DNA from: a virus
Taxonomy: Duplodnaviria > Heunggongvirae > Uroviricota > Caudoviricetes
Reading direction: 5' to 3' (one strand)
IMG/VR virus record: IMGVR_UViG_2681813321_000031
Length of the DNA stretch: 27,060 nucleotides
In this document: positions 1,353-23,685 of the stretch, one piece after another
How the letters are laid out: each line of letters begins with the position of its first letter
How positions within the stretch are numbered: the stretch's first letter is position 1
Program-made: the position numbers and the translations under genes
Notes under the pieces: generated by a model
Told to the model about the DNA's origin: nothing
What the model saw: the letters and a program-made list of their open reading frames with translations, nothing else
Database searches by the model: none

Positions 1353-2348
1353 TTACCCAAGCACGCCGGTTGCAAAGGCGTGATCAAGAAAATGAAAAAT
1401 TAAATCAACCTGGGAACCATGCTTTTCTTCGAATGCCAGCGGATCCGCATGAAGCTCGTTGTGATGTTCCCGACACAGCGGTAGTGTGAAAATATCGTGG
1501 GATTTTGTTCCCATTCCACCCTGACCGTGGCCTATCAGGTGGTGGGCATCATCAGCAGGCTTTCCGCAACATGCGCACGGCTGCGTCTTAACCCAGCGCG
1601 TGTACTTTTCATTAACCCAGCGGCGACGTTTTGGGCGTAACATAAAAGACTCCGGCGACTCCGGATCCACTTTCAGCGCCAGCACCTTTTTCGCCTTATC
1701 CTGGATGATGCTGGTGGCAGTAACCGAAGGCACAAGGTCACTTTCCCGGGTAACAGACGGCACAACAGGCTTCGGTAATCTCAGTGCCTTACGGGCTGCA
1801 CTTTCCGATAAGGCATCCGCCAGATCATTACGAATCAGCCACCAGCACAGTTCCGGCATTGTCACAACGTGACTGTCGTCAAAACCGAGCTCCCGACGCA
1901 CAACAGACAACACCCAGCGGGCACAGTTATCCGTTGCCATTGATTCCAGCCGTTCCGTGAACTGATCGCGCAGCTGGTTATCGCAGTGCCAGCACAGACG
2001 GATCGCGCCCGGAGCGTGTCGCATTGTGGTCATGTTCTCGCTGTGCCAGTTGGAATGAGGCCACTGACAGCCCTTTTCACGAAGTAACCAGCTTTCAAGA
2101 CATTCCACGCCACCAGCACGACGGATCACTGCCTCATTGCGGAACACGGCCCGAACGGCAGGATCATCCGCCAGCGGTTGTGATGCCGCCGGAACGGCAC
2201 CACTGGCAAAAGATGAATAACGTTCCGGCTCAGGCTCCAGCAGGACACGCCCCTGCATAAACAGGGGCATCAGCTCTGAACCGGGCCTGAACAATACGAT
2301 CCCCATACGCGGGGCAATTTCAGGGGTCAGTAGTGCTCTCACGGTCAC
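1353..2348 (-). CDS. DUF968-like prophage protein with C-terminal HNH-type Cys/His motif
   Basis: 331-aa ORF; C-terminus CACCGKPADDAHHLIGHGQGG...LPLCREHHNELH is a CxxC...HH...C..HH HNH-like zinc-finger signature; resembles YdfU-type prophage proteins. The 5' part of the gene lies inside the 7.55-kb repeat unit. Confidence 0.75.
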   Translation of the reverse strand: MTVRALLTPEIAPRMGIVLFRPGSELMPLFMQGRVLLEPEPERYSSFASGAVPAASQPLADDPAVRAVFRNEAVIRRAGGVECLESWLLREKGCQWPHSNWHSENMTTMRHAPGAIRLCWHCDNQLRDQFTERLESMATDNCARWVLSVVRRELGFDDSHVVTMPELCWWLIRNDLADALSESAARKALRLPKPVVPSVTRESDLVPSVTATSIIQDKAKKVLALKVDPESPESFMLRPKRRRWVNEKYTRWVKTQPCACCGKPADDAHHLIGHGQGGMGTKSHDIFTLPLCREHHNELHADPLAFEEKHGSQVDLIFHFLDHAFATGVLG

Positions 2349-2393
2349 CTCAGCGAACGGTATTGCATGAACGCAGAAGAAAAAATTCAGCCA

Positions 2394-2651
2394 TCACGCA
2401 GTAAACTCCTTCACCAGTATTTCAAACTGGCTTACCTGGCCTTCCAGTTCCGCCACGCAATCCACCAGCTCATCCACCGCCTTTTGTGTGCGGTGTTTTG
2501 CCAGCAGCAGATCACGCAGCGCCGGAGTAAGCTGCTTGCGGAGCGTATCCTTTGCCACGCTCGTTTTTTCCATCTGTTCAGCACAACGAAGCATCTCCTG
2601 CGCCTGCCGACGAAGTTGTTCCGGTGAAACAGTGATTGCTCTGTTGTTCAA
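2394..2651 (-). CDS. hypothetical protein (85 aa, predicted helical)
   Basis: ORF overlaps the dnaB-like stop by 4 nt (translational coupling); no family recognised. Confidence 0.55.
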   Translation of the reverse strand: MNNRAITVSPEQLRRQAQEMLRCAEQMEKTSVAKDTLRKQLTPALRDLLLAKHRTQKAVDELVDCVAELEGQVSQFEILVKEFTA

Positions 2652-4048
2652 AATAAACGCTCCGTTTTACTGCCCGACATGCGGTTATTGCTGTATCTGC
2701 GCGGATTGCCCGGCGTCATGGGTGTGGAAAGAACCCGGGCACTCTCCTGGTCCACAGGCAGAAAATGTCCGTTATGAAAACGCCGGTAAATGGTCCCGAG
2801 CGTGCCATTACGCTGTTTCGTGATGTTGATTTCTGCTATGCCTCTGGCCTGAGTTTCCGGGTTGTATACCTCATCCCTGTAAAGCATCAGAATGATGTCG
2901 GCATCCGCCTCGATTTCCCCGGAGTTTTTCAGGTCCGAGTTCATTGGGCGTTTATTGGGTCTGGATTCCACGCCGCGGGAGAGCTGGCTCAGAGCAATCA
3001 GCGGAAAACCGCCGGATTTTGCCAGGCTTTTAAGTCCCTTTGAGATTTCCCCCACAGCAAGGTCGTGACGCCCCGTGCTGCGGGTTTTAATCAGGCCGAG
3101 GTAATCGACCACAACCAGCGCCGTTTCCGGGTGTTTCATCCGGTGGTGCTTCGTGGTTGCACATATCTCATCAATGGTCAGGTTTGCCTGGTCCACCATC
3201 CAGATATTACGCCCCGTCATTCGTCCCACGCCCTGCGAGAAACGCGCCCAGTCTTCATCTTCAAAACGGGCAACAGACTTAAGACGGGATACCGGCATTC
3301 CACCGGCAGCAGACACCATACGTTCACCAATCTGGATGTTCGCCATCTCCATGGTGAACAGAAGCACGCCATGCCCCTGCTCAGTCACCTTGTCGATGAT
3401 GTCCAGCGCAAGTTCGGTTTTCCCCATCGAAGGACGGGCGGCAATGAATACCAGGTCTCCGGGCTCCATACCGCCCGTTTTTGCGTCCAGTTCATCAATA
3501 CCGGTCATCAGCGCCCTGGATTTCTCCAGTCCCTGATTGCGGCATTCAACACGGTCGACCACTTCCGGAAGGACATCATCAATGTGAACCGGCTGAATGA
3601 CGCCCTTTCCGGTCGACAGTGAGGCCATCATGTTCTGCGCATCCTTCAGGGCATCCTCGGCTGCTTCACAGGTATACGCATCACGTAAATTCTGTAATGC
3701 TTCAGTCAGTGTTTTTTCTGCATCGCGCAGTGCGGCATTGCGCCGCAACGCTGCGACATAGTGCTCCAGTGAAGACTTCACCCAGGTTTTGCGTCCGGTG
3801 TCGGTAATCACCGGGGCAAGTTCCGGCATCTCATTGCACAGCAGTACGGGGTCAATGACGCCGAATATGCGAGCCTGTCTGCAAATCCCCGCGTAAATAT
3901 CCCGGTACTGACGCACAAAAAATACATCCGCCGGAAGTGTGGCCAGAATATCCATCACTTCCGGATCGGCCCCACGCAGAAAAAACGCACCGATGACAGC
4001 GCCTTCCAGGTCATCGTTACGCCATGCCGGGGTGTTCTGGCTGGTCAT
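2648..4048 (-). CDS. DnaB-family replicative DNA helicase
   Basis: 466 aa; Walker A GARPSMGKTELALDI, FTMEMANIQ and SQLSRGVESR regions match the DnaB RecA-like domain; 4-nt overlap with the upstream loader gene. Confidence 0.95.
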   Translation of the reverse strand: MTSQNTPAWRNDDLEGAVIGAFFLRGADPEVMDILATLPADVFFVRQYRDIYAGICRQARIFGVIDPVLLCNEMPELAPVITDTGRKTWVKSSLEHYVAALRRNAALRDAEKTLTEALQNLRDAYTCEAAEDALKDAQNMMASLSTGKGVIQPVHIDDVLPEVVDRVECRNQGLEKSRALMTGIDELDAKTGGMEPGDLVFIAARPSMGKTELALDIIDKVTEQGHGVLLFTMEMANIQIGERMVSAAGGMPVSRLKSVARFEDEDWARFSQGVGRMTGRNIWMVDQANLTIDEICATTKHHRMKHPETALVVVDYLGLIKTRSTGRHDLAVGEISKGLKSLAKSGGFPLIALSQLSRGVESRPNKRPMNSDLKNSGEIEADADIILMLYRDEVYNPETQARGIAEINITKQRNGTLGTIYRRFHNGHFLPVDQESARVLSTPMTPGNPRRYSNNRMSGSKTERLF

Positions 4049-4953
4049 GCGGCAACACCTCCGATACGAGAACGGTAGCTGGGCCAGTTAAACGACAACC
4101 AGTTGCGCCCGCCATCGGTGATCCTGTCGGCAATCCGGGGACTGATGAACGCCCACAATTCTTCCGGTGAAAGGTTGCTGATCAGGATAGTTGGCAAAAT
4201 ACCCTCATACCGGGCATTGATAATTTCCTGCAAAATGGCCATTTCAGCCGCACTGCCAAACTGAACGCCGACTTCGTCGACAATCAGCAAATCCAGTGAC
4301 GCATAATGCTCAATGACGTCATCCGCTGTTTTTTCACTGTCATTCCGCCAGCAGTTTTTCACAGCCCGGGTAAGGCGCATCACGTCGGTGATCTCCACAC
4401 TGGCCAGATAGTTACGGATGATGTGTTTTGCCATTGATACCGCCAGATGATTTTTCCCGGTACCGCAACTGCCGGTCATAACAAGACTGGTACCGTTCTC
4501 CAGCATATCTGGCCAGTTCTCCGCATAGCGGCGACAGGCCGCAAGATTTCTGGCTGCGTCAGGATTAACCTCCAGATAATTATCAAACTCGCAGTCCCGA
4601 AAACGCAGAGCAATTCCGGCGTTATCAGTCAGTTCTTCCGCCTTGAGGGACGACAGTTCCATGGTCAAATCACTGGCCTCAGCGATCAAGCAGTCAGGGC
4701 AGCATGAAATTTTTTCTCTGTCCTCGCCATTACGATCGATCCACACCAGTATATGCGTACGATATTTACCGTGTTTTTCGCAATATCCGCGACCTTCACG
4801 CATCAGGCAGGAACGATAAGGCCATGGCTTTTCGCCCTTCTGAGCAAATGCAATCTCTGCCCGTAACTCATCCATTTCTGCCCGTAACTCATCCATTCGC
4901 GCCTGTAGTCTTGTTTGTTTCTCACGTTGGTCAATCGTCATCATCGCTGTCAC
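4045..4953 (-). CDS. DnaC/IstB-like AAA+ helicase loader with N-terminal Cys-rich region
   Basis: 302 aa; Walker A GSCGTGKNHLA, Walker B LLIVDEVG; N-terminal Cys/His cluster (C...CEKHGK...CCPDC). Confidence 0.85.
   Translation of the reverse strand: MTAMMTIDQREKQTRLQARMDELRAEMDELRAEIAFAQKGEKPWPYRSCLMREGRGYCEKHGKYRTHILVWIDRNGEDREKISCCPDCLIAEASDLTMELSSLKAEELTDNAGIALRFRDCEFDNYLEVNPDAARNLAACRRYAENWPDMLENGTSLVMTGSCGTGKNHLAVSMAKHIIRNYLASVEITDVMRLTRAVKNCWRNDSEKTADDVIEHYASLDLLIVDEVGVQFGSAAEMAILQEIINARYEGILPTILISNLSPEELWAFISPRIADRITDGGRNWLSFNWPSYRSRIGGVAA
4858..4899. repeat. 21-bp in-frame tandem duplication inside the loader gene
   Basis: ctgcccgtaactcatccattt / ctgcccgtaactcatccattc; encodes MDELRAE-MDELRAE in the N-terminal coiled region. 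Confidence 0.8.
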
Positions 4954-4954
4954 C

Positions 4955-5947
4955 TCAGAATGTCAATTTGTTACTGGATTTACCGAATTTGTCCGACATG
5001 GCTCCCAGGCCAGCCAGGACATCGACCTGTCGCTGTCGCCCACCTCCGTGAGCGGCTGGCTGTTGCCAGTAATCTTCGAAGTGACGATCGGGTCCAAAGA
5101 ACGTCGCAGCCTGCTTCACGAACTGTGTGCCGATATTTCCTGTAGCACGTACCCAGGCGGCATACCGCTTCACGCCATCAAGCATGGTCTCCGGTTTTAT
5201 TCCCTCCCTGATACGGGCTTTCCAGGCTTTGAAGGCTGCTGACTTGGAATTGCCACCAGCACGTTTGGGATATTCCTGCCAGGCCTGTTCAAATTCCGGT
5301 GAATATTCCTGTCGGGCAGAACGCGCTGGCGCAGACGCGTCAGCGGATGCATCAATAGTGTTTTTAGTCTCCGTTGTAATCTCTGTAGTAATCTCTGTAT
5401 TTGTATCAACATTCGGCGTATCCCCTGTTCCGTTATGACGTCGGGGGGTGTTCCGTTTTAACGTAATAGCTGTATCGCTGATTGCATTATTGCTGTTACT
5501 TTCTGGCGAAACAGAAGAAGGTGTGGTGATGGCCGCAATTGCCTGTGGGTTGATCCCGACAAACAAAATATTGCTGCATTTCACCCCATCGAGCATTTCC
5601 ACCGTGCGTAAATCCAGAGTAATAAACCCTGCATCGCGCAGACGCTTCAGCGCATCTGCGGTTTCCCTTTTCCCGAAACCAAACTGCTCAGCAAACGCCT
5701 GGTAGCTTCTTTGCAGTTTGTCGCCCTGAAAACGCTTGCGATATCCCAGCAACGCTCCGGTGTGCTCATCCCTGACCTCTGTCGGGCGGTACCAGTAAAC
5801 GATCTCTGAAAGCAGAGCGATAGCCGTCGCATCCGGACGCCCACTGGGTAGTCGAATATATTTCCACCAGTTCGCAGGTGTAACATTGCCGGAAATATTA
5901 ATTTGACCAATAGCCATAACTTCCGGTGTGGGGGCGTAACGGCTCAT
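4955..5947 (-). CDS. putative replication initiator (O-like / replisome organizer)
   Basis: 330-aa ORF directly upstream of the loader and helicase genes; conserved N- and C-terminal blocks separated by a low-complexity T/E/I-rich linker. Assignment is by position plus weak motif resemblance. Confidence 0.55.
   Translation of the reverse strand: MSRYAPTPEVMAIGQINISGNVTPANWWKYIRLPSGRPDATAIALLSEIVYWYRPTEVRDEHTGALLGYRKRFQGDKLQRSYQAFAEQFGFGKRETADALKRLRDAGFITLDLRTVEMLDGVKCSNILFVGINPQAIAAITTPSSVSPESNSNNAISDTAITLKRNTPRRHNGTGDTPNVDTNTEITTEITTETKNTIDASADASAPARSARQEYSPEFEQAWQEYPKRAGGNSKSAAFKAWKARIREGIKPETMLDGVKRYAAWVRATGNIGTQFVKQAATFFGPDRHFEDYWQQPAAHGGGRQRQVDVLAGLGAMSDKFGKSSNKLTF
5375..5398. repeat. 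12-bp direct repeat (gtaatctctgta x2) in the initiator linker
   Basis: Encodes TEITTEITTE; candidate iteron-like repeats by analogy with lambda ori lying inside O. Confidence 0.4.
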
Positions 5948-6243
5948 ACAACCTCCTTCCGCGGCATGAGAATTGTGTAGCCACGCGCAGGTTGTAGTCT
6001 GGCTTTTGCATCAATAGTAAGCGTTGCAATTTTTCGGATATGAAGATAACCAGCTCTTTCCAGTGCCAGGGTTTCCCTGAATATCGCTTGCTTAGAACAA
6101 CAGCAGAAATCAGCAAGCACCTGATGATCAATAACTCTCTCGCCTTCACCGTCTGAAGAACCCGACATCAAAACACGCAACATAATCAGGCGCTGAATCG
6201 GGTTATCGAAAGCACATCCGCACACAAACTGAAAACAGTTCAC
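5944..6243 (-). CDS. hypothetical protein, possible winged-helix DNA-binding
   Basis: 99-aa ORF coupled to the initiator start by a 4-nt overlap. Confidence 0.45.
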   Translation of the reverse strand: MNCFQFVCGCAFDNPIQRLIMLRVLMSGSSDGEGERVIDHQVLADFCCCSKQAIFRETLALERAGYLHIRKIATLTIDAKARLQPARGYTILMPRKEVV

Positions 6244-6464
6244 GCCACACCTCCCAGACGCTTAAACATTTTTCCAGACAGAAATACCGCCAGAGGGTAA
6301 CTGATGGTGTAGCTACGCCCCTGTAGTTCGCACACGACTTTCTGGCTTTCAGCGTTGACTAGGCAAACCCGCAGAACGTGACCGTTGCTGGTGGCGAACC
6401 ACTGCCCCACACGGGGGCAACGGTTGTATCGGTGATACAGGGAATTAACGATGTGGCGGATCAT
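6240..6464 (-). CDS. hypothetical protein (74 aa)
   Basis: ORF in the operon, 4-nt overlap with the downstream gene. Confidence 0.4.
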   Translation of the reverse strand: MIRHIVNSLYHRYNRCPRVGQWFATSNGHVLRVCLVNAESQKVVCELQGRSYTISYPLAVFLSGKMFKRLGGVA

Positions 6465-6655
6465 GGACGCACCTCCACCGTAGTTACGTATTTAACCGGG
6501 CTACCTTTCATTGAGATGGTTTCACACATCTCTGCCGCTTTCAGTTCCGCTGTTTTTCTGGATTTATAGCGACGGTGCCAGACAGATACATCCGTGCGAA
6601 CTGATACATCGTTTCTGTATTCCGTAGTGGAGATGATGATTTCGTAACTAATCAT
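6461..6655 (-). CDS. hypothetical protein (64 aa)
   Basis: ORF in the operon, coupled to the neighbours. Confidence 0.4.
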   Translation of the reverse strand: MISYEIIISTTEYRNDVSVRTDVSVWHRRYKSRKTAELKAAEMCETISMKGSPVKYVTTVEVRP

Positions 6656-7203
6656 GGGCGAACCTCCTTGTCAGAACCATTCAGCCTGGAATCAACAAGT
6701 GCAGCGCCAAAAACAGCATCACCAACACGGTCGTACAGTTTGCTAGCCAGCGGAGATTCAACGGCCTTAAGCATTGGATAAAGCTGGCTTGTCCAGATTT
6801 GATGGATTTCACGCAAATGCAGGTATACGCCTCTGGCGTTTCGTGCGACAGCTGACATATCAACCGCGTCAGCACCAGATAAATTCTTCTCCATCTGGTT
6901 AAAGGCGTTGATGTATGCCTCTTTGAACCGGGCTGCACGTTTGCCAGTAAAGCCCATAGCAAGGAACGCGAAGCCATCGCGGGTGATTTGATAGCAAGGT
7001 AGTTTGCGGCCTGTGCAATCGGTGTAATCACTGGGCTGAAAATTCAGCTCAGTGAATTCAACAGAGCACTCAAGCGTCTGGATTTTTTGAATAACGTTTT
7101 TGTGCTGCTTGCAGAAATATTCGGCAACGGCCAAAGAAGAGGTAACAGCCTTCCCATGGATAACATCAATTTTAGGGTGAGTTTGGGTAGGGGTGGTTGC
7201 CAT
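6652..7203 (-). CDS. rha: phage regulatory protein Rha (core, 183 aa from ATG 7201-7203; track ORF extends to 7500)
   Basis: VTSSLAVAEYF...FTELNF...GRKLPCYQITRDGFAFLAMGFTGKRAARFKEAYINAFN matches the Rha N-terminal domain. ATG at 7201-7203 has a GAGGA Shine-Dalgarno 7 nt upstream. The longer 282-aa ORF reads through an upstream terminator hairpin and the structured element. Confidence 0.8.
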   Translation of the reverse strand: MATTPTQTHPKIDVIHGKAVTSSLAVAEYFCKQHKNVIQKIQTLECSVEFTELNFQPSDYTDCTGRKLPCYQITRDGFAFLAMGFTGKRAARFKEAYINAFNQMEKNLSGADAVDMSAVARNARGVYLHLREIHQIWTSQLYPMLKAVESPLASKLYDRVGDAVFGAALVDSRLNGSDKEVRP

Positions 7204-7260
7204 AGTGACATCCTCATGTGCGAATTTTGAAAACTCACCACATGGGACGCCAATCACAGA

Positions 7261-7339
7261 GGTGGTGAGACGTACAGGGTTGGCGTAACCGGTCGCACAT
7301 GACCCCGGCGCATCTTTCGATGCCCCTGCACGCCCCACC
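7261..7339 (-). ncRNA. candidate structured cis-regulatory RNA in the rha leader (P1 16-bp helix enclosing P2 and P3 hairpins)
   Basis: Minus-strand GGUGGGGCGUGCAGGG (7339-7324) pairs with CCCUGUACGUCUCACC (7279-7264): 13 Watson-Crick + 3 G-U pairs, which become A-C mismatches on the plus strand. P2 GCAUC-GAAA-GAUGC at 7323-7310. Copy 2 has the same P1 and a P2 of CCAAC-UUCG-GUUGG. Confidence 0.45.
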
Positions 7340-7366
7340 ATAATTTGGATGTGAGGAAACGTGCGC

Positions 7367-7389
7367 AAAAAAACCGCTGAAGCGCGGTT
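7367..7389 (-). terminator. intrinsic terminator-like hairpin + U7 between the rha-like gene and rha
   Basis: Minus-strand AACCGC-GCUUCA-GCGGUU followed by UUUUU; stem and U tract are conserved in copy 2 while the loop and flanks diverge. Confidence 0.45.
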
Positions 7390-7583
7390 ATGCGCATGTG
7401 CGAATTTCAGGACGCCAATCCCGGCACCCGCTTTATAAGGTGCGGAGACAGTGTAACGTCCCGAAATTGCAGAATCAATATTTGGTCTTGAAATGATCAT
7501 ATAGCTGCTGATATCTTTAGAACTGTTCTTGGATGTTTCGGAGCCGTTTTATGCGAAACAGCTCCCCGTTATTGATGTTGAGT

Positions 7584-7609
7584 GAGCCGGGTTACTCCCG
7601 GCTTTTTTT
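7584..7609 (+). terminator. plus-strand intrinsic terminator overlapping the stop codon of the 235-aa gene
   Basis: GAGCCGGG-UUACU-CCCGGCUU plus a 7-T tract on the plus strand only (no U tract on the minus strand); implies a plus-strand transcript convergent with the operon. Confidence 0.45.
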
Positions 7610-8316
7610 CACCGCTGCCAACCAATAACCTGAAATAACCCCATTTTCGGGTGATACCAGCGAGTCCCTCGCGGTTCTGCTTCCTCCATAACCCGATAAA
7701 AAGCAGCCATAAACGGTTCCACAGCAACAATTGCGCGACGTGACAACAATCCGTCCGGCGTCATGAACTCATGGGTGTCTGTAGGAATTTGATAGGCGTT
7801 CACCAGATTGCGGCATTTATCATCTGACAAACCGGTTTTTGCTTTCAGTTGGCGATATCCGGCATAGCCCTCACGAATAGTGCCCTTTTTAATTTGCTCG
7901 ACTGTTTCAGCAACGTGGCTGACTTTTTCTTCCACCTGAGTGATCCGTTTCTGTTGGCGAACGGCTTCAAGAGCCATCGCGGCAACCATTTCGATTTCGC
8001 TCATTGGCTTACGGATCTGTTCTTCCAGTTCGCGCCAGCGATCTACCAGGCGAGCAGTGAATTCAGGACAGAGCTGTGCGACGACAATGATGCTGTCGCG
8101 CTTACCTCGTTCACCTTCGAATACATACGCGCTAGAAAATCGGCGAGGCCCAAGTGATTGTTTATTCTCAATTTCCACAGTCTGTGGAAATTGGATGATT
8201 CCCTTTTTAGCCAGTGTTTCAATAGTTCTCTTAACACTATCTGGTCGGCTTCCCACCAGCTCTGCGATCTCAACGCTGGTCATGGATGCTTTGCCGTTAA
8301 AAATTGCGGTGTTCAT
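7609..8316 (-). CDS. Rha/antirepressor-like phage regulatory protein (235 aa) at the cII position
   Basis: N-terminal TSVEIAELVGSRPDSVKRTIETL resembles the Rha-type N-terminal DNA-binding motif; ATGA overlap with the upstream Cro-like gene. Confidence 0.55.
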   Translation of the reverse strand: MNTAIFNGKASMTSVEIAELVGSRPDSVKRTIETLAKKGIIQFPQTVEIENKQSLGPRRFSSAYVFEGERGKRDSIIVVAQLCPEFTARLVDRWRELEEQIRKPMSEIEMVAAMALEAVRQQKRITQVEEKVSHVAETVEQIKKGTIREGYAGYRQLKAKTGLSDDKCRNLVNAYQIPTDTHEFMTPDGLLSRRAIVAVEPFMAAFYRVMEEAEPRGTRWYHPKMGLFQVIGWQR

Positions 8317-8540
8317 TGTTGGTCTCCTGTGGGCTTGTCATCTTCTGTATTCGCTAGACTTGGGTGTGTATATGGAATGCTCGGATCCAGATGACAAAGA
8401 ATGGCAACATCCTCCGGAACACCTCGCGTTTTCCACTTTCCAACACCTTGACTGCCACGAGGCCTTCCTTTCTTTGGGAACCTGCGACCAATAGCGGCAT
8501 TGGTTTTAAATTGAATTTTTAATATTTCATAAAGGGTCAT
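8313..8540 (-). CDS. Cro/DicC-like small DNA-binding protein (75 aa)
   Basis: First gene divergent from cI across an operator-rich intergenic region; small and basic; ...FKTNAAIGRRF... resembles the Cro/DicC HTH region. Largely positional inference. Confidence 0.5.
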   Translation of the reverse strand: MTLYEILKIQFKTNAAIGRRFPKKGRPRGSQGVGKWKTRGVPEDVAILCHLDPSIPYTHPSLANTEDDKPTGDQQ

Positions 8541-8651
8541 TCTTTAGTCTCACACCAGATACTTTGTTATTCAACGATGTTAACCACAGGAATCCAAAGT
8601 ATCAAGAAATTCTGTTACTTTAGTATCAACAGCCATGAGAGGAGAAGAAAA
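8541..8651. promoter_or_regulatory. OR-like operator/promoter region between the cro-like gene and cI
   Basis: Three copies of the core AGTATCA / GATACT (8558-8564 inverted; 8598-8604 and 8622-8628 direct) in 110 bp; AGAGGAGAA Shine-Dalgarno before the cI ATG. Confidence 0.5.
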
Positions 8652-9308
8652 ATGAAGTCTTTAGGTGAACGTCTCATCAACGCACGGCAAAAAGCTGGGT
8701 TAACACAAGATGCGTTGGCTAAAAAAGCTGGGATCACCAGAGTTGCAATCAGTAAAGCCGAGCAAGGCCTTACAAAAAGTTTCAACGGTGACACCCTTTT
8801 TAAAGTTGCAGCTGCACTGCGGTGTTCACCGCAGTGGCTTCAGAACGGAGATGAAAAAGATAAGCATTGGGAAAATAATGTTAAGAGCTGCCCACAGAGA
8901 GACACAGCACACTCTTACCCTGTAATTAACTGGGTTCAGGCAGGATTATTCGCAACTTCTGGTGATGACTACAACATGTATGATCAGGATAATTGGAGGC
9001 ATTCTGTAAAATACGCTGGTGAGAGGGGGTTCTGGCTGGAAGTGCACGGAGACTCAATGACTTCGCCCGTAGGAATAACATTTCCTGAAGGAATGTCGAT
9101 CCTTGTCAACCCAGATAAAGAAGTTTTTTCAGGGTGTTACGTCATCGCCAGAAAAAAATCTACCAATGAAGCAACATTCAAAAAATATATTTCTGACATG
9201 GGAAAGGCGTTTCTAAAGCCCCTTAATCCACAATATCCAATCATAGAAATGGACAATGATTGCGAAATAGTAGGTGTTGTGGTTGATGCCAGGTGGGATA
9301 TTTTCTGA
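8652..9308 (+). CDS. CI-like prophage repressor (XRE HTH + S24 LexA-like peptidase domain)
   Basis: MKSLGERLINARQKAGLTQDALAKKAGITRVAISKAEQG is an HTH; C-terminal ...LEVHGDSMTSP...CYVIARKK... shows the S24 Ser/Lys dyad pattern; strong RBS. Track ORF starts 75 nt earlier at an alternative codon. Confidence 0.9.
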   Translation: MKSLGERLINARQKAGLTQDALAKKAGITRVAISKAEQGLTKSFNGDTLFKVAAALRCSPQWLQNGDEKDKHWENNVKSCPQRDTAHSYPVINWVQAGLFATSGDDYNMYDQDNWRHSVKYAGERGFWLEVHGDSMTSPVGITFPEGMSILVNPDKEVFSGCYVIARKKSTNEATFKKYISDMGKAFLKPLNPQYPIIEMDNDCEIVGVVVDARWDIF

Positions 9309-9411
9309 CCAGACACAAAACACAAAAAGAAACCAAAGTATCAAAAATCACTTGCCACACCTTGATACCTTAGTTACCATAAAACAAAGTTCGTAACTGA
9401 GGTATCATCCC
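9309..9411. promoter_or_regulatory. OL-like operator/promoter region downstream of cI
   Basis: The same GTATCA core recurs three times (9337-9343, 9363-9369 inverted, 9401-9407), forming an inverted pair AAGTATCAA...TTGATACCT. Confidence 0.4.
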
Positions 9412-9771
9412 ATGATCAATAAAGCTACAACTCTTGACTGTCTCGAAGAACTGAAAAACCTCGGCAGCCTCATTACACTAATAGCAAAAGCAACACCTGA
9501 TGCTACGCTCTCTAGCGATATAGAGTCATGCGCAGGACTGGCATGGGATATGACAAATAGCATATCCAGAAAGCTATCGTCAGCAATGCTTTTACAGAAC
9601 AAAAATTCTGCAATCAACAACCGTCTTCGCACCCAACGCGAAGCCTGCGGCTTAACAACCGCCGAACTCGCCAGGCTGCTCGATCTCGATGAAGAAATTA
9701 TCATCCAGTGGGAGAGCGGAGAGTATGAACCAACTATCAGTATGCTTATCCCACTGGCAAAAGATGAATAA
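9412..9771 (+). pseudogene. 3'-truncated copy of the XRE HTH gene, cut at the tandem-duplication junction
   Basis: Identical to the first 116 codons of 16969..17472, then diverges after the microhomology ccactggcaaa (9751-9761) into sequence from the DUF968 gene, ending ...LAKDE. Confidence 0.6.
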
Positions 9772-9944
9772 CGTTCCGGCTCAGGCTCCAGCAGGACACG
9801 CCCCTGCATAAACAGGGGCATCAGCTCTGAACCGGGCCTGAACAATACGATCCCCATACGCGGGGCAATTTCAGGGGTCAGTAGTGCTCTCACGGTCACC
9901 TCAGCGAACGGTATTGCATGAACGCAGAAGAAAAAATTCAGCCA

Positions 9945-10202
9945 TCACGCAGTAAACTCCTTCACCAGTATTTCAAACTGGCTTACCTGGCCTTCCAGTT
10001 CCGCCACGCAATCCACCAGCTCATCCACCGCCTTTTGTGTGCGGTGTTTTGCCAGCAGCAGATCACGCAGCGCCGGAGTAAGCTGCTTGCGGAGCGTATC
10101 CTTTGCCACGCTCGTTTTTTCCATCTGTTCAGCACAACGAAGCATCTCCTGCGCCTGCCGACGAAGTTGTTCCGGTGAAACAGTGATTGCTCTGTTGTTC
10201 AA
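9945..10202 (-). CDS. hypothetical protein (85 aa), copy B
   Basis: Identical to 2394..2651. Confidence 0.55.
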   Translation of the reverse strand: MNNRAITVSPEQLRRQAQEMLRCAEQMEKTSVAKDTLRKQLTPALRDLLLAKHRTQKAVDELVDCVAELEGQVSQFEILVKEFTA

Positions 10203-11599
10203 AATAAACGCTCCGTTTTACTGCCCGACATGCGGTTATTGCTGTATCTGCGCGGATTGCCCGGCGTCATGGGTGTGGAAAGAACCCGGGCACTCTCCTG
10301 GTCCACAGGCAGAAAATGTCCGTTATGAAAACGCCGGTAAATGGTCCCGAGCGTGCCATTACGCTGTTTCGTGATGTTGATTTCTGCTATGCCTCTGGCC
10401 TGAGTTTCCGGGTTGTATACCTCATCCCTGTAAAGCATCAGAATGATGTCGGCATCCGCCTCGATTTCCCCGGAGTTTTTCAGGTCCGAGTTCATTGGGC
10501 GTTTATTGGGTCTGGATTCCACGCCGCGGGAGAGCTGGCTCAGAGCAATCAGCGGAAAACCGCCGGATTTTGCCAGGCTTTTAAGTCCCTTTGAGATTTC
10601 CCCCACAGCAAGGTCGTGACGCCCCGTGCTGCGGGTTTTAATCAGGCCGAGGTAATCGACCACAACCAGCGCCGTTTCCGGGTGTTTCATCCGGTGGTGC
10701 TTCGTGGTTGCACATATCTCATCAATGGTCAGGTTTGCCTGGTCCACCATCCAGATATTACGCCCCGTCATTCGTCCCACGCCCTGCGAGAAACGCGCCC
10801 AGTCTTCATCTTCAAAACGGGCAACAGACTTAAGACGGGATACCGGCATTCCACCGGCAGCAGACACCATACGTTCACCAATCTGGATGTTCGCCATCTC
10901 CATGGTGAACAGAAGCACGCCATGCCCCTGCTCAGTCACCTTGTCGATGATGTCCAGCGCAAGTTCGGTTTTCCCCATCGAAGGACGGGCGGCAATGAAT
11001 ACCAGGTCTCCGGGCTCCATACCGCCCGTTTTTGCGTCCAGTTCATCAATACCGGTCATCAGCGCCCTGGATTTCTCCAGTCCCTGATTGCGGCATTCAA
11101 CACGGTCGACCACTTCCGGAAGGACATCATCAATGTGAACCGGCTGAATGACGCCCTTTCCGGTCGACAGTGAGGCCATCATGTTCTGCGCATCCTTCAG
11201 GGCATCCTCGGCTGCTTCACAGGTATACGCATCACGTAAATTCTGTAATGCTTCAGTCAGTGTTTTTTCTGCATCGCGCAGTGCGGCATTGCGCCGCAAC
11301 GCTGCGACATAGTGCTCCAGTGAAGACTTCACCCAGGTTTTGCGTCCGGTGTCGGTAATCACCGGGGCAAGTTCCGGCATCTCATTGCACAGCAGTACGG
11401 GGTCAATGACGCCGAATATGCGAGCCTGTCTGCAAATCCCCGCGTAAATATCCCGGTACTGACGCACAAAAAATACATCCGCCGGAAGTGTGGCCAGAAT
11501 ATCCATCACTTCCGGATCGGCCCCACGCAGAAAAAACGCACCGATGACAGCGCCTTCCAGGTCATCGTTACGCCATGCCGGGGTGTTCTGGCTGGTCAT
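10199..11599 (-). CDS. DnaB-family replicative helicase, copy B
   Basis: Identical protein to 2648..4048. Confidence 0.95.
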   Translation of the reverse strand: MTSQNTPAWRNDDLEGAVIGAFFLRGADPEVMDILATLPADVFFVRQYRDIYAGICRQARIFGVIDPVLLCNEMPELAPVITDTGRKTWVKSSLEHYVAALRRNAALRDAEKTLTEALQNLRDAYTCEAAEDALKDAQNMMASLSTGKGVIQPVHIDDVLPEVVDRVECRNQGLEKSRALMTGIDELDAKTGGMEPGDLVFIAARPSMGKTELALDIIDKVTEQGHGVLLFTMEMANIQIGERMVSAAGGMPVSRLKSVARFEDEDWARFSQGVGRMTGRNIWMVDQANLTIDEICATTKHHRMKHPETALVVVDYLGLIKTRSTGRHDLAVGEISKGLKSLAKSGGFPLIALSQLSRGVESRPNKRPMNSDLKNSGEIEADADIILMLYRDEVYNPETQARGIAEINITKQRNGTLGTIYRRFHNGHFLPVDQESARVLSTPMTPGNPRRYSNNRMSGSKTERLF

Positions 11600-12504
11600 G
11601 CGGCAACACCTCCGATACGAGAACGGTAGCTGGGCCAGTTAAACGACAACCAGTTGCGCCCGCCATCGGTGATCCTGTCGGCAATCCGGGGACTGATGAA
11701 CGCCCACAATTCTTCCGGTGAAAGGTTGCTGATCAGGATAGTTGGCAAAATACCCTCATACCGGGCATTGATAATTTCCTGCAAAATGGCCATTTCAGCC
11801 GCACTGCCAAACTGAACGCCGACTTCGTCGACAATCAGCAAATCCAGTGACGCATAATGCTCAATGACGTCATCCGCTGTTTTTTCACTGTCATTCCGCC
11901 AGCAGTTTTTCACAGCCCGGGTAAGGCGCATCACGTCGGTGATCTCCACACTGGCCAGATAGTTACGGATGATGTGTTTTGCCATTGATACCGCCAGATG
12001 ATTTTTCCCGGTACCGCAACTGCCGGTCATAACAAGACTGGTACCGTTCTCCAGCATATCTGGCCAGTTCTCCGCATAGCGGCGACAGGCCGCAAGATTT
12101 CTGGCTGCGTCAGGATTAACCTCCAGATAATTATCAAACTCGCAGTCCCGAAAACGCAGAGCAATTCCGGCGTTATCAGTCAGTTCTTCCGCCTTGAGGG
12201 ACGACAGTTCCATGGTCAAATCACTGGCCTCAGCGATCAAGCAGTCAGGGCAGCATGAAATTTTTTCTCTGTCCTCGCCATTACGATCGATCCACACCAG
12301 TATATGCGTACGATATTTACCGTGTTTTTCGCAATATCCGCGACCTTCACGCATCAGGCAGGAACGATAAGGCCATGGCTTTTCGCCCTTCTGAGCAAAT
12401 GCAATCTCTGCCCGTAACTCATCCATTTCTGCCCGTAACTCATCCATTCGCGCCTGTAGTCTTGTTTGTTTCTCACGTTGGTCAATCGTCATCATCGCTG
12501 TCAC
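11596..12504 (-). CDS. DnaC/IstB-like helicase loader, copy B
   Basis: Identical protein to 4045..4953. Confidence 0.85.
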   Translation of the reverse strand: MTAMMTIDQREKQTRLQARMDELRAEMDELRAEIAFAQKGEKPWPYRSCLMREGRGYCEKHGKYRTHILVWIDRNGEDREKISCCPDCLIAEASDLTMELSSLKAEELTDNAGIALRFRDCEFDNYLEVNPDAARNLAACRRYAENWPDMLENGTSLVMTGSCGTGKNHLAVSMAKHIIRNYLASVEITDVMRLTRAVKNCWRNDSEKTADDVIEHYASLDLLIVDEVGVQFGSAAEMAILQEIINARYEGILPTILISNLSPEELWAFISPRIADRITDGGRNWLSFNWPSYRSRIGGVAA

Positions 12505-12505
12505 C

Positions 12506-13498
12506 TCAGAATGTCAATTTGTTACTGGATTTACCGAATTTGTCCGACATGGCTCCCAGGCCAGCCAGGACATCGACCTGTCGCTGTCGCCCACCTCCGT
12601 GAGCGGCTGGCTGTTGCCAGTAATCTTCGAAGTGACGATCGGGTCCAAAGAACGTCGCAGCCTGCTTCACGAACTGTGTGCCGATATTTCCTGTAGCACG
12701 TACCCAGGCGGCATACCGCTTCACGCCATCAAGCATGGTCTCCGGTTTTATTCCCTCCCTGATACGGGCTTTCCAGGCTTTGAAGGCTGCTGACTTGGAA
12801 TTGCCACCAGCACGTTTGGGATATTCCTGCCAGGCCTGTTCAAATTCCGGTGAATATTCCTGTCGGGCAGAACGCGCTGGCGCAGACGCGTCAGCGGATG
12901 CATCAATAGTGTTTTTAGTCTCCGTTGTAATCTCTGTAGTAATCTCTGTATTTGTATCAACATTCGGCGTATCCCCTGTTCCGTTATGACGTCGGGGGGT
13001 GTTCCGTTTTAACGTAATAGCTGTATCGCTGATTGCATTATTGCTGTTACTTTCTGGCGAAACAGAAGAAGGTGTGGTGATGGCCGCAATTGCCTGTGGG
13101 TTGATCCCGACAAACAAAATATTGCTGCATTTCACCCCATCGAGCATTTCCACCGTGCGTAAATCCAGAGTAATAAACCCTGCATCGCGCAGACGCTTCA
13201 GCGCATCTGCGGTTTCCCTTTTCCCGAAACCAAACTGCTCAGCAAACGCCTGGTAGCTTCTTTGCAGTTTGTCGCCCTGAAAACGCTTGCGATATCCCAG
13301 CAACGCTCCGGTGTGCTCATCCCTGACCTCTGTCGGGCGGTACCAGTAAACGATCTCTGAAAGCAGAGCGATAGCCGTCGCATCCGGACGCCCACTGGGT
13401 AGTCGAATATATTTCCACCAGTTCGCAGGTGTAACATTGCCGGAAATATTAATTTGACCAATAGCCATAACTTCCGGTGTGGGGGCGTAACGGCTCAT
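12506..13498 (-). CDS. putative replication initiator (O-like), copy B
   Basis: Identical protein to 4955..5947. Confidence 0.55.
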   Translation of the reverse strand: MSRYAPTPEVMAIGQINISGNVTPANWWKYIRLPSGRPDATAIALLSEIVYWYRPTEVRDEHTGALLGYRKRFQGDKLQRSYQAFAEQFGFGKRETADALKRLRDAGFITLDLRTVEMLDGVKCSNILFVGINPQAIAAITTPSSVSPESNSNNAISDTAITLKRNTPRRHNGTGDTPNVDTNTEITTEITTETKNTIDASADASAPARSARQEYSPEFEQAWQEYPKRAGGNSKSAAFKAWKARIREGIKPETMLDGVKRYAAWVRATGNIGTQFVKQAATFFGPDRHFEDYWQQPAAHGGGRQRQVDVLAGLGAMSDKFGKSSNKLTF

Positions 13499-13794
13499 AC
13501 AACCTCCTTCCGCGGCATGAGAATTGTGTAGCCACGCGCAGGTTGTAGTCTGGCTTTTGCATCAATAGTAAGCGTTGCAATTTTTCGGATATGAAGATAA
13601 CCAGCTCTTTCCAGTGCCAGGGTTTCCCTGAATATCGCTTGCTTAGAACAACAGCAGAAATCAGCAAGCACCTGATGATCAATAACTCTCTCGCCTTCAC
13701 CGTCTGAAGAACCCGACATCAAAACACGCAACATAATCAGGCGCTGAATCGGGTTATCGAAAGCACATCCGCACACAAACTGAAAACAGTTCAC
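13495..13794 (-). CDS. hypothetical protein, copy B
   Basis: Identical to 5944..6243. Confidence 0.45.
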   Translation of the reverse strand: MNCFQFVCGCAFDNPIQRLIMLRVLMSGSSDGEGERVIDHQVLADFCCCSKQAIFRETLALERAGYLHIRKIATLTIDAKARLQPARGYTILMPRKEVV

Positions 13795-14015
13795 GCCACA
13801 CCTCCCAGACGCTTAAACATTTTTCCAGACAGAAATACCGCCAGAGGGTAACTGATGGTGTAGCTACGCCCCTGTAGTTCGCACACGACTTTCTGGCTTT
13901 CAGCGTTGACTAGGCAAACCCGCAGAACGTGACCGTTGCTGGTGGCGAACCACTGCCCCACACGGGGGCAACGGTTGTATCGGTGATACAGGGAATTAAC
14001 GATGTGGCGGATCAT
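13791..14015 (-). CDS. hypothetical protein, copy B
   Basis: Identical to 6240..6464. Confidence 0.4.
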   Translation of the reverse strand: MIRHIVNSLYHRYNRCPRVGQWFATSNGHVLRVCLVNAESQKVVCELQGRSYTISYPLAVFLSGKMFKRLGGVA

Positions 14016-14206
14016 GGACGCACCTCCACCGTAGTTACGTATTTAACCGGGCTACCTTTCATTGAGATGGTTTCACACATCTCTGCCGCTTTCAGTTCCG
14101 CTGTTTTTCTGGATTTATAGCGACGGTGCCAGACAGATACATCCGTGCGAACTGATACATCGTTTCTGTATTCCGTAGTGGAGATGATGATTTCGTAACT
14201 AATCAT
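14012..14206 (-). CDS. hypothetical protein, copy B
   Basis: Identical to 6461..6655. Confidence 0.4.
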   Translation of the reverse strand: MISYEIIISTTEYRNDVSVRTDVSVWHRRYKSRKTAELKAAEMCETISMKGSPVKYVTTVEVRP

Positions 14207-14754
14207 GGGCGAACCTCCTTGTCAGAACCATTCAGCCTGGAATCAACAAGTGCAGCGCCAAAAACAGCATCACCAACACGGTCGTACAGTTTGCTAGCCA
14301 GCGGAGATTCAACGGCCTTAAGCATTGGATAAAGCTGGCTTGTCCAGATTTGATGGATTTCACGCAAATGCAGGTATACGCCTCTGGCGTTTCGTGCGAC
14401 AGCTGACATATCAGACGTATCGGCACCTGATAAACTCTTCTCCATCAGGTTAAAGGCGTTGATGTATGCCTCTTTGAACCGGGCAGCACGTTTACCAGTG
14501 AAGCCCATGGCAAGGAACGCGAAGCCATCGCGGGTGATTTGATAGCAAGGTAGTTTGCGGCCTGATGCGTCGGTGTATTCACTTAACACAAAATTGTGTT
14601 CAGTAAATTCAGCGGAACATTCGAGGTTTCTAATTCTATCTAAAACCCGCTCATGCCGTTTAGTAAAGTAATTAGCTACTGCAAGAGATGTGGTGACAAC
14701 GCGACCATTGATAATCGTGATTTCAGGGTGAGATTGGGTTGGGAGAGTAGTCAT
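14203..14754 (-). CDS. rha: phage regulatory protein Rha, divergent allele (core from ATG 14752-14754; track ORF extends to 15057)
   Basis: C-terminal half identical to copy A; the N-terminal Rha domain carries many substitutions (e.g. KQHKNVIQKIQTL vs KRHERVLDRIRNL). Confidence 0.8.
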   Translation of the reverse strand: MTTLPTQSHPEITIINGRVVTTSLAVANYFTKRHERVLDRIRNLECSAEFTEHNFVLSEYTDASGRKLPCYQITRDGFAFLAMGFTGKRAARFKEAYINAFNLMEKSLSGADTSDMSAVARNARGVYLHLREIHQIWTSQLYPMLKAVESPLASKLYDRVGDAVFGAALVDSRLNGSDKEVRP

Positions 14755-14814
14755 GGTGACAGCCCCTATGTTGAATTCAATGAACTCACCACCAAGGCTT
14801 TCCACGACCATATA

Positions 14815-14893
14815 GGTGGTGAGACGTACAGGGGTGGAAATACCGGTCAACATAGAACCCGGCCCAACCGAAGTTGGCCCTGCACGCCCCACC
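14815..14893 (-). ncRNA. candidate structured RNA element, copy B (covarying with 7261..7339)
   Basis: P1 strands identical to copy A; P2 is CCAAC-UUCG-GUUGG (plus strand 14864-14877); P3 retains the CCGG...CCGG pairing with a diverged loop. Confidence 0.45.
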
Positions 14894-14924
14894 ATAATTT
14901 GGGCGTAACGATGCTCATGACACG

Positions 14925-14946
14925 AAAAAACCGCATGAGCGCGGTT
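14925..14946 (-). terminator. intrinsic terminator-like hairpin + U tract, copy B
   Basis: Minus-strand AACCGC-GCUCAU-GCGGUU followed by UUUU; same stem as copy A, different loop. Confidence 0.4.
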
Positions 14947-15140
14947 GTGCTCTATATTGAATTTCGGGTTTCCACGCCCGGCACCCGCTTTATAAGGTGC
15001 CTGAGCAGTGTAACGTCCCGGAATTGCAGAATCAATATTTGGTCTTGAAATGATCATATAGCTGCTGATATCTTTAGAACTGTTCTTGGATGTTTCGGAG
15101 CCGTTTTATGCGAAACAGCTCCCCGTTATTGATGTTGAGT

Positions 15141-15166
15141 GAGCCGGGTTACTCCCGGCTTTTTTT
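15141..15166 (+). terminator. plus-strand intrinsic terminator, copy B
   Basis: Identical to 7584..7609. Confidence 0.45.
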
Positions 15167-15873
15167 CACCGCTGCCAACCAATAACCTGAAATAACCCCA
15201 TTTTCGGGTGATACCAGCGAGTCCCTCGCGGTTCTGCTTCCTCCATAACCCGATAAAAAGCAGCCATAAACGGTTCCACAGCAACAATTGCGCGACGTGA
15301 CAACAATCCGTCCGGCGTCATGAACTCATGGGTGTCTGTAGGAATTTGATAGGCGTTCACCAGATTGCGGCATTTATCATCTGACAAACCGGTTTTTGCT
15401 TTCAGTTGGCGATATCCGGCATAGCCCTCACGAATAGTGCCCTTTTTAATTTGCTCGACTGTTTCAGCAACGTGGCTGACTTTTTCTTCCACCTGAGTGA
15501 TCCGTTTCTGTTGGCGAACGGCTTCAAGAGCCATCGCGGCAACCATTTCGATTTCGCTCATTGGCTTACGGATCTGTTCTTCCAGTTCGCGCCAGCGATC
15601 TACCAGGCGAGCAGTGAATTCAGGACAGAGCTGTGCGACGACAATGATGCTGTCGCGCTTACCTCGTTCACCTTCGAATACATACGCGCTAGAAAATCGG
15701 CGAGGCCCAAGTGATTGTTTATTCTCAATTTCCACAGTCTGTGGAAATTGGATGATTCCCTTTTTAGCCAGTGTTTCAATAGTTCTCTTAACACTATCTG
15801 GTCGGCTTCCCACCAGCTCTGCGATCTCAACGCTGGTCATGGATGCTTTGCCGTTAAAAATTGCGGTGTTCAT
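15166..15873 (-). CDS. Rha/antirepressor-like regulatory protein (235 aa), copy B
   Basis: Identical to 7609..8316. Confidence 0.55.
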   Translation of the reverse strand: MNTAIFNGKASMTSVEIAELVGSRPDSVKRTIETLAKKGIIQFPQTVEIENKQSLGPRRFSSAYVFEGERGKRDSIIVVAQLCPEFTARLVDRWRELEEQIRKPMSEIEMVAAMALEAVRQQKRITQVEEKVSHVAETVEQIKKGTIREGYAGYRQLKAKTGLSDDKCRNLVNAYQIPTDTHEFMTPDGLLSRRAIVAVEPFMAAFYRVMEEAEPRGTRWYHPKMGLFQVIGWQR

Positions 15874-16097
15874 TGTTGGTCTCCTGTGGGCTTGTCATCT
15901 TCTGTATTCGCTAGACTTGGGTGTGTATATGGAATGCTCGGATCCAGATGACAAAGAATGGCAACATCCTCCGGAACACCTCGCGTTTTCCACTTTCCAA
16001 CACCTTGACTGCCACGAGGCCTTCCTTTCTTTGGGAACCTGCGACCAATAGCGGCATTGGTTTTAAATTGAATTTTTAATATTTCATAAAGGGTCAT
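15870..16097 (-). CDS. Cro/DicC-like protein, copy B
   Basis: Identical to 8313..8540. Confidence 0.5.
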   Translation of the reverse strand: MTLYEILKIQFKTNAAIGRRFPKKGRPRGSQGVGKWKTRGVPEDVAILCHLDPSIPYTHPSLANTEDDKPTGDQQ

Positions 16098-16208
16098 TCT
16101 TTAGTCTCACACCAGATACTTTGTTATTCAACGATGTTAACCACAGGAATCCAAAGTATCAAGAAATTCTGTTACTTTAGTATCAACAGCCATGAGAGGA
16201 GAAGAAAA
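16098..16208. promoter_or_regulatory. OR-like operator region, copy B
   Basis: Identical to 8541..8651. Confidence 0.5.
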
Positions 16209-23623: not shown

Positions 23624-23628
23624 ATGGA

Positions 23629-23662: not shown

Positions 23663-23685
23663 GGGGAGGAGAGGCAGGGAAATAG

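Follow-up and report, generated by a model that had tools for sequence, protein, structure and literature searches.

An IsrK-C4 antisense-RNA module upstream of rha in an Escherichia coli lambdoid prophage and a candidate small RNA gene on the opposite strand

Three described systems stand closest to the region examined here, a 404-bp interval without a convincing gene, located between a Roi-like gene and the regulatory gene rha in a 27,060-nucleotide (nt) stretch of viral DNA (Caudoviricetes; IMG/VR record IMGVR_UViG_2681813321_000031; the whole stretch is called the window below). These systems are the IsrK-orf45-anrP region of Gifsy-1, immI of phages P1 and P7, and the immunity of phage P4. 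In Gifsy-1, part of the isrK transcripts pass the terminator of the small RNA (sRNA) IsrK and give rise to an isrK-orf45-anrP mRNA that is translationally silent (PMC4825925). When IsrK is provided in trans, anrP translation increases more than 100-fold and transcription 8-fold; the activation needs translation of orf45 (AUGs at nt 107 and 120). Processing of the read-through RNA also yields a stable RNA, STnc1160 (PMC4825925). The authors compare IsrK to P4 seqA and STnc1160 to P4 CI RNA (PMC4825925), and both IsrK and STnc1160 have been detected as RNAs in Salmonella (PMC4825925; bioRxiv 787010). Our present results describe the 404-bp region as, probably, two adjacent RNA units of divergent orientation within an early-right operon: the first, on the minus strand, is of a known kind, and the second, on the plus strand, is a candidate.

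In immI of P1, the regulated gene is ant, the coupled upstream frame is called icd, and the heteroimmune phages P1 and P7 differ only in their pairing sequences. The c4 antisense RNA of P1 and P7, with its a1/b1 and a2/b2 sites, was reportedly described by Citron and Schuster in 1990, and immI of both phages is said to have been treated by Riedel et al. in 1993. The pairing logic of this system, leading from a1/b1 through a'/b' to a2/b2, is available in a more recent account (PMC8201110).

The minus-strand unit of our locus can be assigned with high confidence to the same kind, as a P1 immI / Gifsy-1 isrK-type antisense-RNA module upstream of rha. The window holds this module in two copies, A and B, and in both of them the Rfam models of IsrK and C4 score above their gathering scores (50 bits for RF01394, 45 bits for RF01695). 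The features of the module are:

7450-7478, minus strand: predicted isrK promoter, read from the sequence; -35 TTGATT (7478-7473), 17-nt spacer, -10 TACACT (7455-7450)
7443-7367, minus strand: IsrK-family sRNA, 77 nt (RF01394, 62.3 bits, model positions 1-77, full length)
7419-7412, minus strand: a1-type site in IsrK, AUUGGCGU
7403-7395, minus strand: b1-type site in IsrK, UCGCACAUG
7345-7258, minus strand: C4-family antisense RNA (RF01695, 75.1 bits, full length)
7341-7339, minus strand: AUG of an orf45-like frame, nt 103 of the isrK transcript, in frame through C4 into rha
7302-7293, minus strand: C4 loop b', UCAUGUGCGA
7286-7280, minus strand: single-stranded C4 segment a', ACGCCAA
7254-7247, minus strand: a2 target site in the rha leader, AUUGGCGU
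7223-7214, minus strand: b2 target site in the rha leader, UCGCACAUGA
6652-7203, minus strand: rha, 183 amino acids (aa) from AUG 7203 (Pfam Phage_pRha, E = 2.4e-32), first gene of an operon running into replication genes
14812-15000, minus strand: copy B of the whole module, of another specificity than copy A
15000-14924, minus strand: IsrK of copy B (RF01394, 61.6 bits)
14899-14812, minus strand: C4 of copy B (RF01695, 82.4 bits)

A preliminary description of this DNA, made from its letters, had noticed a minus-strand hairpin followed by U7 at 7367-7389, located between the upstream Rha-like gene and a "structured element" that corresponds to the C4 RNA. The terminator scan confirms this hairpin: the stem 7389-7372 (AACCGC/GCGGTT, six pairs, four of them G-C, loop of 6) has a folding free energy (dG) of -9.1 kcal/mol and is followed by U7 at 7373-7367. 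Its conservation in copy B with a different loop was also correctly read, since the counterpart at 14924-14946 retains the stem and the U tract (U6C), the loops being CUUCAG versus CUCAUG. Together with the plus-strand terminator discussed below it forms the top two of 12 terminator-like sites in 6 kb, for which shuffled sequence gives 7.0 +/- 3.0 sites. The hairpin with its U7 is the intrinsic terminator of the IsrK-family sRNA. By analogy with Gifsy-1, we predict that it is weak enough to leak, and the U7 tail looks compatible with Hfq binding. The predicted transcription start, G 7443, is the first position of the Rfam IsrK model, 7 nt downstream of the promoter, and this promoter is invariant across all related loci examined, including those with unrelated upstream DNA. 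No separate promoter-like site was found by the promoter scan between the IsrK terminator and C4. The C4 RNA folds with -46.5 kcal/mol (z = -5.1).

Membership of the two RNAs in the IsrK and C4 families and the anatomy of the module are observed directly, and so is a three-way covariation of the pairing sites. The a1 and b1 sites of IsrK are complementary to the C4 loops, and the b2 site of copy A overlaps GAGGA (7215-7211), the Shine-Dalgarno sequence preceding the rha AUG. The divergence between copies A and B starts exactly at isrK +1, and within the RNAs three places change together:

IsrK sites: copy A AUUGGCGU ... UCGCACAUG; copy B GUGGAAA ... UCAAUAUAG
C4 loops: copy A UCAUGUGCGA, ACGCCAA; copy B UCUAUGUUGA, UUUCCAC
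sites ahead of rha: copy A AUUGGCGU ... UCGCACAUGA; copy B GUGGAAA ... UCAACAUAG

Taken over all loop-site duplexes of copies A and B, cognate pairs reach -12 to -18 kcal/mol and cross-copy pairs -4 to -12 kcal/mol; for the target sites in the leader the values are -12 to -17 kcal/mol with the cognate C4 versus -4 to -9 kcal/mol with the C4 of the other copy. These energies were calculated segment by segment, in place of folding whole C4 and target sequences, which was too noisy. The same relationship extends to 81 unique modules collected from E. coli genomes, GenBank phages and IMG/VR contigs, across which the two C4 loops assort combinatorially into 21 combinations. The best partner of each C4 is its own leader in all 21 types and its own IsrK in 19 of them, with mean duplex energies of -21.7 (IsrK) and -23.5 kcal/mol (leader) for cognate against -13.4 and -14.4 kcal/mol for non-cognate pairs. 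Evolution of specificity can thus be followed through at least 21 combinations of two short pairing sequences that change in step at three places, and within the window two 7.5-kb copies are identical apart from the specificity cassette.

Some IMG/VR phage contigs carry tandem arrays in which the isrK-C4-gene module recurs two or three times, at intervals of about 656 or 863 bp (L010, 6500-7181; L015; L021, 9907-11244; L214; L219; L240). In the L010 and L021 arrays, whose sequences were inspected, each module has a different pair of recognition sequences.

By analogy with the homologues, the module could work as follows. Transcription from the conserved promoter would begin at 7443, and most transcripts would end at the weak hairpin with U7, giving the 77-nt IsrK. 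A fraction would read through and produce a long RNA containing the C4-type RNA (7345-7258) and the rha message. The two exposed segments of C4 would then pair with the two sites upstream of rha, one of them over the ribosome-binding site, keeping rha silent; the downstream replication genes would probably be silenced as well, through loss of translation. Because IsrK carries the same two sites as the rha leader, free IsrK would compete for the C4 sequence and switch rha on, in line with the trans-activation measured in Gifsy-1. The frame opened at nt 103, uninterrupted across C4, probably couples ribosomes into rha, as compared with orf45 of Gifsy-1 and icd of P1. Four elements of this scheme are carried over from the homologues: read-through, processing, the role of IsrK as a decoy and the polar effect on the replication genes. 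Two points weigh against this scheme or its P1-like part. The published Gifsy-1 model has IsrK remodelling the long mRNA, with no titration of free C4 RNA, and the Rfam model of the P1-type upstream sites, c4-a1b1 (RF03163), stays below its cut-off at 7404-7456 (23.9 versus 46.7 bits). The latter region is better described by the IsrK model.

The likeness to the IsrK-orf45-anrP region of Gifsy-1 (Hershko-Shalev et al. 2016, PMC4825925) comprises an sRNA of the same Rfam family with its own promoter and a leaky intrinsic terminator (here predicted), a stable structured RNA downstream to which IsrK is complementary (STnc1160 there, the C4 match here), a small frame that begins at about nt 103-107 and runs over this downstream RNA, and finally a gene of the regulator or antirepressor type. 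The two loci differ in placement, since the module described here lies inside the early-right operon, after the cro-like and roi-like genes and before the replication genes, whereas the Gifsy-1 module follows antQ. The orf45-like frame is here fused in frame to rha, whereas orf45 stops before the next gene; the recognition sequences are different as well.

With immI of P1 and P7 our module shares a C4-family RNA whose two loops pair with two upstream and two downstream sites, the downstream b site being at the ribosome-binding site, as well as a translationally coupled upstream frame (predicted here), a regulated gene of the Ant/Rha type, and heteroimmune variants that differ solely in the pairing sequences. 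In contrast to immI, the upstream sites form a terminated sRNA of their own, IsrK; the module resides in a lambdoid prophage with a cI/cro switch, there is no icd homologue, and the c4-a1b1 model remains sub-threshold. P4 immunity (CI RNA, seqA, seqC; PMC4825925) resembles the predicted working of our module in that an RNA processed from the leader pairs on both sides of itself and controls downstream replication genes; in addition, the Pfam Ash family matches the translated RNA region of our locus. The P4 mechanism is premature transcription termination. The records of SfV and Ayreon already label this region "immunity region".

The first unit therefore belongs to known families (IsrK, C4, P1 immI / P4-like immunity), an ordinary member, if a neatly documented one, of an established RNA immunity system. 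Distinctive are its placement ahead of lambdoid replication genes, the fusion of the coupling frame to rha and the combinatorial specificities. In its position directly ahead of the replication genes, the module could provide lambdoid prophages, Stx-converting phages among them, with a second layer of immunity that is based on RNA. The suggestion of attenuation made in the preliminary description is correct as far as the hairpin is a terminator in the leader of rha and as read-through of its homologue gates the downstream gene in Gifsy-1 (PMC4825925), but the device is an antisense system of the P1 c4 / P4 CI type and not a classical attenuator.

The plus-strand unit lies outside this module and occupies a spacer of 128 bp (7481-7608) that separates the Roi-like gene from the isrK promoter. 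The idea that its terminator and that of IsrK are "opposed" parts of one rha-leader device has to be given up, the plus-strand terminator being located upstream of the isrK promoter and outside the rha leader. The unit is composed of:

7488-7517, plus strand: candidate sigma-70 promoter with extended -10; TTGAAA (7488-7493), 18-nt spacer, TG (7509-7510), TATCTT (7512-7517)
7524-7537, plus strand: conserved 5' block TGTTCTTGGATGTT with core GTTCTTGGAT; predicted 5' end of the candidate RNA
7540-7565, either strand: 10-bp hairpin, GGAGCCGUUU / AAACAGCUCC on the plus strand
7584-7609, plus strand: intrinsic terminator; stem 7584-7604 (8 pairs, 6 G-C, loop 5, dG -15.0 kcal/mol), T7 at 7603-7609
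15045-15166, plus strand: copy B of the unit, identical to copy A (promoter 15045-15074, terminator 15141-15166)

The terminator at 7584-7609 can function as such on the plus strand only, because CACUCAAC comes after the hairpin when it is read on the minus strand. This, together with the overlap with the stop codon of the 235-aa Roi-like gene, had been recognized before and is borne out by the scan; the last T of the terminator falls within the TGA (7611-7609). The previously proposed promoter TTGAAA-18-TATCTT was recovered too, with 9 of 12 matches and the additional TG. It stands back to back with the isrK promoter, precedes the terminator in fitting order and at a fitting distance, and is the sole plus-strand promoter-like site upstream of the terminator, the scan having covered a further 2.5 kb (5000-7487). 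Transcription would start at about 7522-7525. The predicted RNA (~7523-7609) folds with z = -2.8, its type-2 version (see below) with z = -3.7, and a U-rich stretch precedes the terminator hairpin.

To see how widely this arrangement occurs, the DNA preceding the isrK promoter was surveyed at 178 promoter occurrences. The spacer is present at 91 of them, always beside the same roi-type 3' end, in three types (type 1, 75; type 2, 15; type 3, 1); a second type-3 version, L224, comes from a separate comparison. The remaining occurrences are preceded by coding sequence in the same frame, by a further isrK-C4 module in tandem or by other DNA, with no terminator on either strand. Downstream of other Roi homologues (D6, KPP5665-2, phi467), no reverse terminator was found. 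Type 1 was found in 204 of 5,426 complete E. coli genomes (~4%), including O103, O26, some O157 and ST131 strains. Between the types, the flanks are ~100% and the spacer ~70% identical. What is kept in all three types is the -35 hexamer TTGAAA, the TG and the -10 hexamer (TATCTT or TATTTT) at a constant spacing of 18 nt, with only 8 of 15 positions matching inside the promoter spacer; the block TGTTCTTGGATGTT, 6-12 nt after the -10 hexamer and conserved over 10-14 nt; and AACGTTGAG before the hairpin. The terminator stem and its T tract (6-8 T) are retained in all 19 unique versions of the unit, and the loop-closing pair covaries between T-A and C-G. The middle hairpin differs in each type and stays at the same place. 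RNAalifold applied to the 19 sequences was uninformative, the three types aligning poorly.

A promoter, a 5' segment and a terminator conserved around a variable hairpin are the usual signature of an sRNA gene, so the spacer is an unannotated candidate for one. That a discrete plus-strand RNA of ~86 nt is made from it appears to us only slightly short of an even chance, as judged from the sequence. Such an RNA would begin with a conserved segment, continue into the variable hairpin and finish with a U-rich 3' end of the Hfq type. Since early-operon transcription would occlude its promoter, it would be made mainly in the lysogen. Its conserved 5' GUUCUUGGAU would serve to regulate a target in the host or in the phage; another possibility is that it pairs in OOP-like manner with early-operon transcripts and tunes transcription into the isrK-C4-rha-replication block. 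Tentatively, and with somewhat less assurance than for the existence of the transcript, we propose that the spacer encodes a previously undescribed sRNA of this description. The short plus-strand RNA of the preliminary description is thus plausible, with its promoter, 5' block and terminator conserved across three spacer types, but IsrK, C4 and the rha leader are not among the RNAs to which it would be antisense; its complementarity is confined to transcripts that run out of the Roi-like gene in the direction of isrK. If expressed, it would be a new prophage sRNA in pathogenic E. coli.

Several other explanations of the spacer elements were tried and rejected. Resemblance to sroD is confined to the terminator (24.5 bits, cut-off 50). 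The prophage sRNAs AsxR/AgvB/EcOnc, HnrS, the Pas sRNAs and svsR, as well as the StxS context, map elsewhere, to late genes or to the 3' end of cI. A small peptide is not indicated, as frames and sequences differ between types and a ribosome-binding site is missing. In copy A, part of the 5' block, UUGGAUGU (7530-7537, plus strand), is perfectly complementary to ACAUCCAA (7345-7352, minus strand), just upstream of C4 and of the orf45-like AUG; other cassettes linked to this spacer lack the 8-nt match, which is probably due to chance. No trans targets of the 5' block beyond chance were found in the window. A composite pattern of seed and terminator had no match in species-representative genomes, and a scan of viral contigs with 14-mers gave mostly chance matches and was usable after filtering.

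A number of observations weigh against a dedicated sRNA. Promoter-like matches of such quality arise by chance about once per 1.3-1.9 kb, and one natural variant (L147) has a weakened -35 hexamer. A permissive Rfam search of 7100-7700 assigned the plus-strand unit to no family, and no transcript of it was found in the literature on prophage sRNAs. In scans anchored on flanking or unit sequence, the unit was seen solely between a roi-type gene and isrK, in three variants in all and never apart from its flanks. Such a distribution is also what could be expected of a terminator that serves no sRNA, being either an insulator against stray plus-strand transcription that would cross the roi-like and cro-like genes and reach the cI-like gene, or a relic at a roi/isrK recombination junction. 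The spacer of ~70% identity between almost identical flanks (the roi 3' end and the isrK promoter) behaves like a mosaic junction, and most phages with an isrK module have no such spacer or terminator. A relic, however, would not retain -35 hexamer, TG, -10 hexamer and 5' block across three diverged types while its hairpin is replaced, and an insulator would have little else to insulate against, the sole plus-strand promoter-like site in 2.5 kb being located 70 nt upstream. We regard this explanation as possible, though less probable than the sRNA gene.

It is also conceivable, with lower probability still, that the structures of the spacer act in the minus-strand early-operon RNA leaving the roi-like gene, as 3' stabilising hairpins or as a site of processing or of an antitermination type, the plus-strand T tract being incidental. 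As no minus-strand terminator follows the roi-like gene in the scan, transcripts leaving it should exist. The 10-bp hairpin was already noted to be better paired on the minus strand, which is correct, although its position is 7540-7565 and not 7536-7561, 4 nt away: on the minus strand all 10 pairs form (one of them U-G), on the plus strand there is one C/A mismatch. Two independent type-1 variants (L002/L084 and L020) keep G-U pairs on the minus strand and give A/C mismatches on the plus strand, pairing thus on the minus strand only, which counts against the sRNA as well. The type-2 hairpin variant (L167, L004, L074) and the terminator variant of L074, by contrast, pair on the plus strand only. 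Moreover, the A tract of 6-8 nt that would stand 5' of the hairpin has no known role on the minus strand, and no N-like gene is annotated in the CE10 prophage. A nut-like reading was rejected, the resemblance to boxA/boxB being poor.

For the minus-strand module, an alternative to the antisense system is classical translation-coupled attenuation, in which ribosomes crossing IsrK in an upstream frame would block the terminator hairpin, and untranslated transcripts from the isrK promoter would stop there. In favour of it, the frame from isrK +1 is free of stops through IsrK, terminator, C4 and leader in 78 of 80 unique modules, with indels mostly in multiples of 3; an upstream open reading frame (ORF) is fused to it in frame in many phages, and annotation pipelines call an ORF of 282 aa starting at 7500. 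This AUG, however, has no Shine-Dalgarno sequence in the window. Variation in IsrK, C4 and the leader is without codon periodicity, as opposed to the start of rha, which shows it; the modules share conserved scaffolds and are not independent samples, and the Gifsy-1 data account for read-through and activation otherwise. We consider such attenuation improbable. By analogy with orf45 of Gifsy-1 and icd of P1, the open frame probably reflects a need for the transit of ribosomes and not a conserved protein. Its openness downstream of nt 103 fits coupling of the orf45 type, which does not account for the openness over IsrK itself.

The same frame underlies the current annotation of the region. RefSeq presents one 282-aa ORF (6652-7500, minus strand), named 'Rha family phage regulatory protein' or 'ash family protein', which spans the isrK promoter, IsrK, C4 and rha. 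Pfam Phage_ASH (PF10554) matches residues 16-110 of it, that is, the translated RNA region; the 'Ash' family takes its name from phage P4. A long Ash/Rha annotation is found likewise at L003 899-1561 and in many RefSeq genomes. Were 6652-7500 a single protein-coding gene, as annotated, its hairpins would be incidental. We find this very unlikely: two full-length covariance-model matches above threshold and a U7 terminator lie inside the ORF, AUG 7203 is equipped with a strong ribosome-binding site, variation is found where RNA pairing predicts it and not at third codon positions, and IsrK and STnc1160 are RNAs detected in Salmonella (PMC4825925; bioRxiv 787010). The Phage_ASH family may, conversely, largely reflect conserved RNA genes, in which case the "Ash family" and extended "Rha family" proteins of hundreds of E. 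coli genomes would be largely translations of two RNA genes.

The analogy of the plus-strand unit with lambda OOP RNA, drawn in the preliminary description, is one of position. In the lambda map, OOP is short and transcribed leftward, beginning downstream of the gene in the cII position and ending at the 3' end of that gene; the candidate RNA is of similar size (~86 nt versus 77 nt), likewise runs counter to the early-right operon, with its start shortly beyond the gene after cro, and has a strong terminator at the 3' end of that gene. OOP overlaps cII by ~55 nt. The candidate overlaps its upstream gene in the stop codon only (7609-7611), so it cannot target a coding region. Actual homology to OOP is the least probable of all the explanations, as the sequences are not similar (local alignment score 16; shuffled sequences 13.6 +/- 2.3) and the alignment is confined to the generic terminator.

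The window is E. coli lambdoid prophage DNA. Prophages of E. coli strains CE10 and AR_0013 match the surroundings of the two units at 100% identity, and phage PhiR49_2 matches them at 99.3%. The early-right operon on the minus strand consists of cro-like and roi-like genes, the spacer, isrK, C4, rha, replication genes and Q; between rha and the Q antiterminator lie three small genes, then O-like, DnaC-like and helicase genes and a DUF968 gene. The genes upstream of the RNA units are:

8316-7609, minus strand: Roi-like, Rha-family DNA-binding gene, 235 aa, second gene of the operon after the cro-like gene, outside the RNA module
8540-8313, minus strand: cro-like gene of the early operon
8653-9308, plus strand: cI-like repressor gene, divergent from the early-right operon

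The product of the Roi-like gene (7609-8316) is 73% identical to a 235-aa Roi-like protein of the P1-like phage D6 (NC_050154, 19986-20917), encoded next after icd and annotated as Ant. Owing to this identity, the gene upstream of the isrK module is of an antirepressor type that is c4-regulated in another phage.

The two copies of the module belong to two tandem 7.55-kb copies of a replication/immunity segment (2200-9750 and 9751-17300), 100% identical save for 6800-7450 (63-92% identity), where the specificity cassette of isrK and C4 and the 5' portion of rha are located. The CE10 and AR_0013 reference genomes carry the segment in a single copy. The tandem arrangement may be a natural duplication with a swapped cassette or an effect of assembly.

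Elsewhere in the window, two identical matches to group II intron domains V/VI (Rfam RF00029, 64.9 bits) are located on the plus strand at 23627-23713 and 26495-26581, 2868 bp apart. Each is preceded by a 346-aa ORF (22583-23623 and 25451-26491), and the arrangement resembles an intron repeated in tandem or a segment that is present twice.

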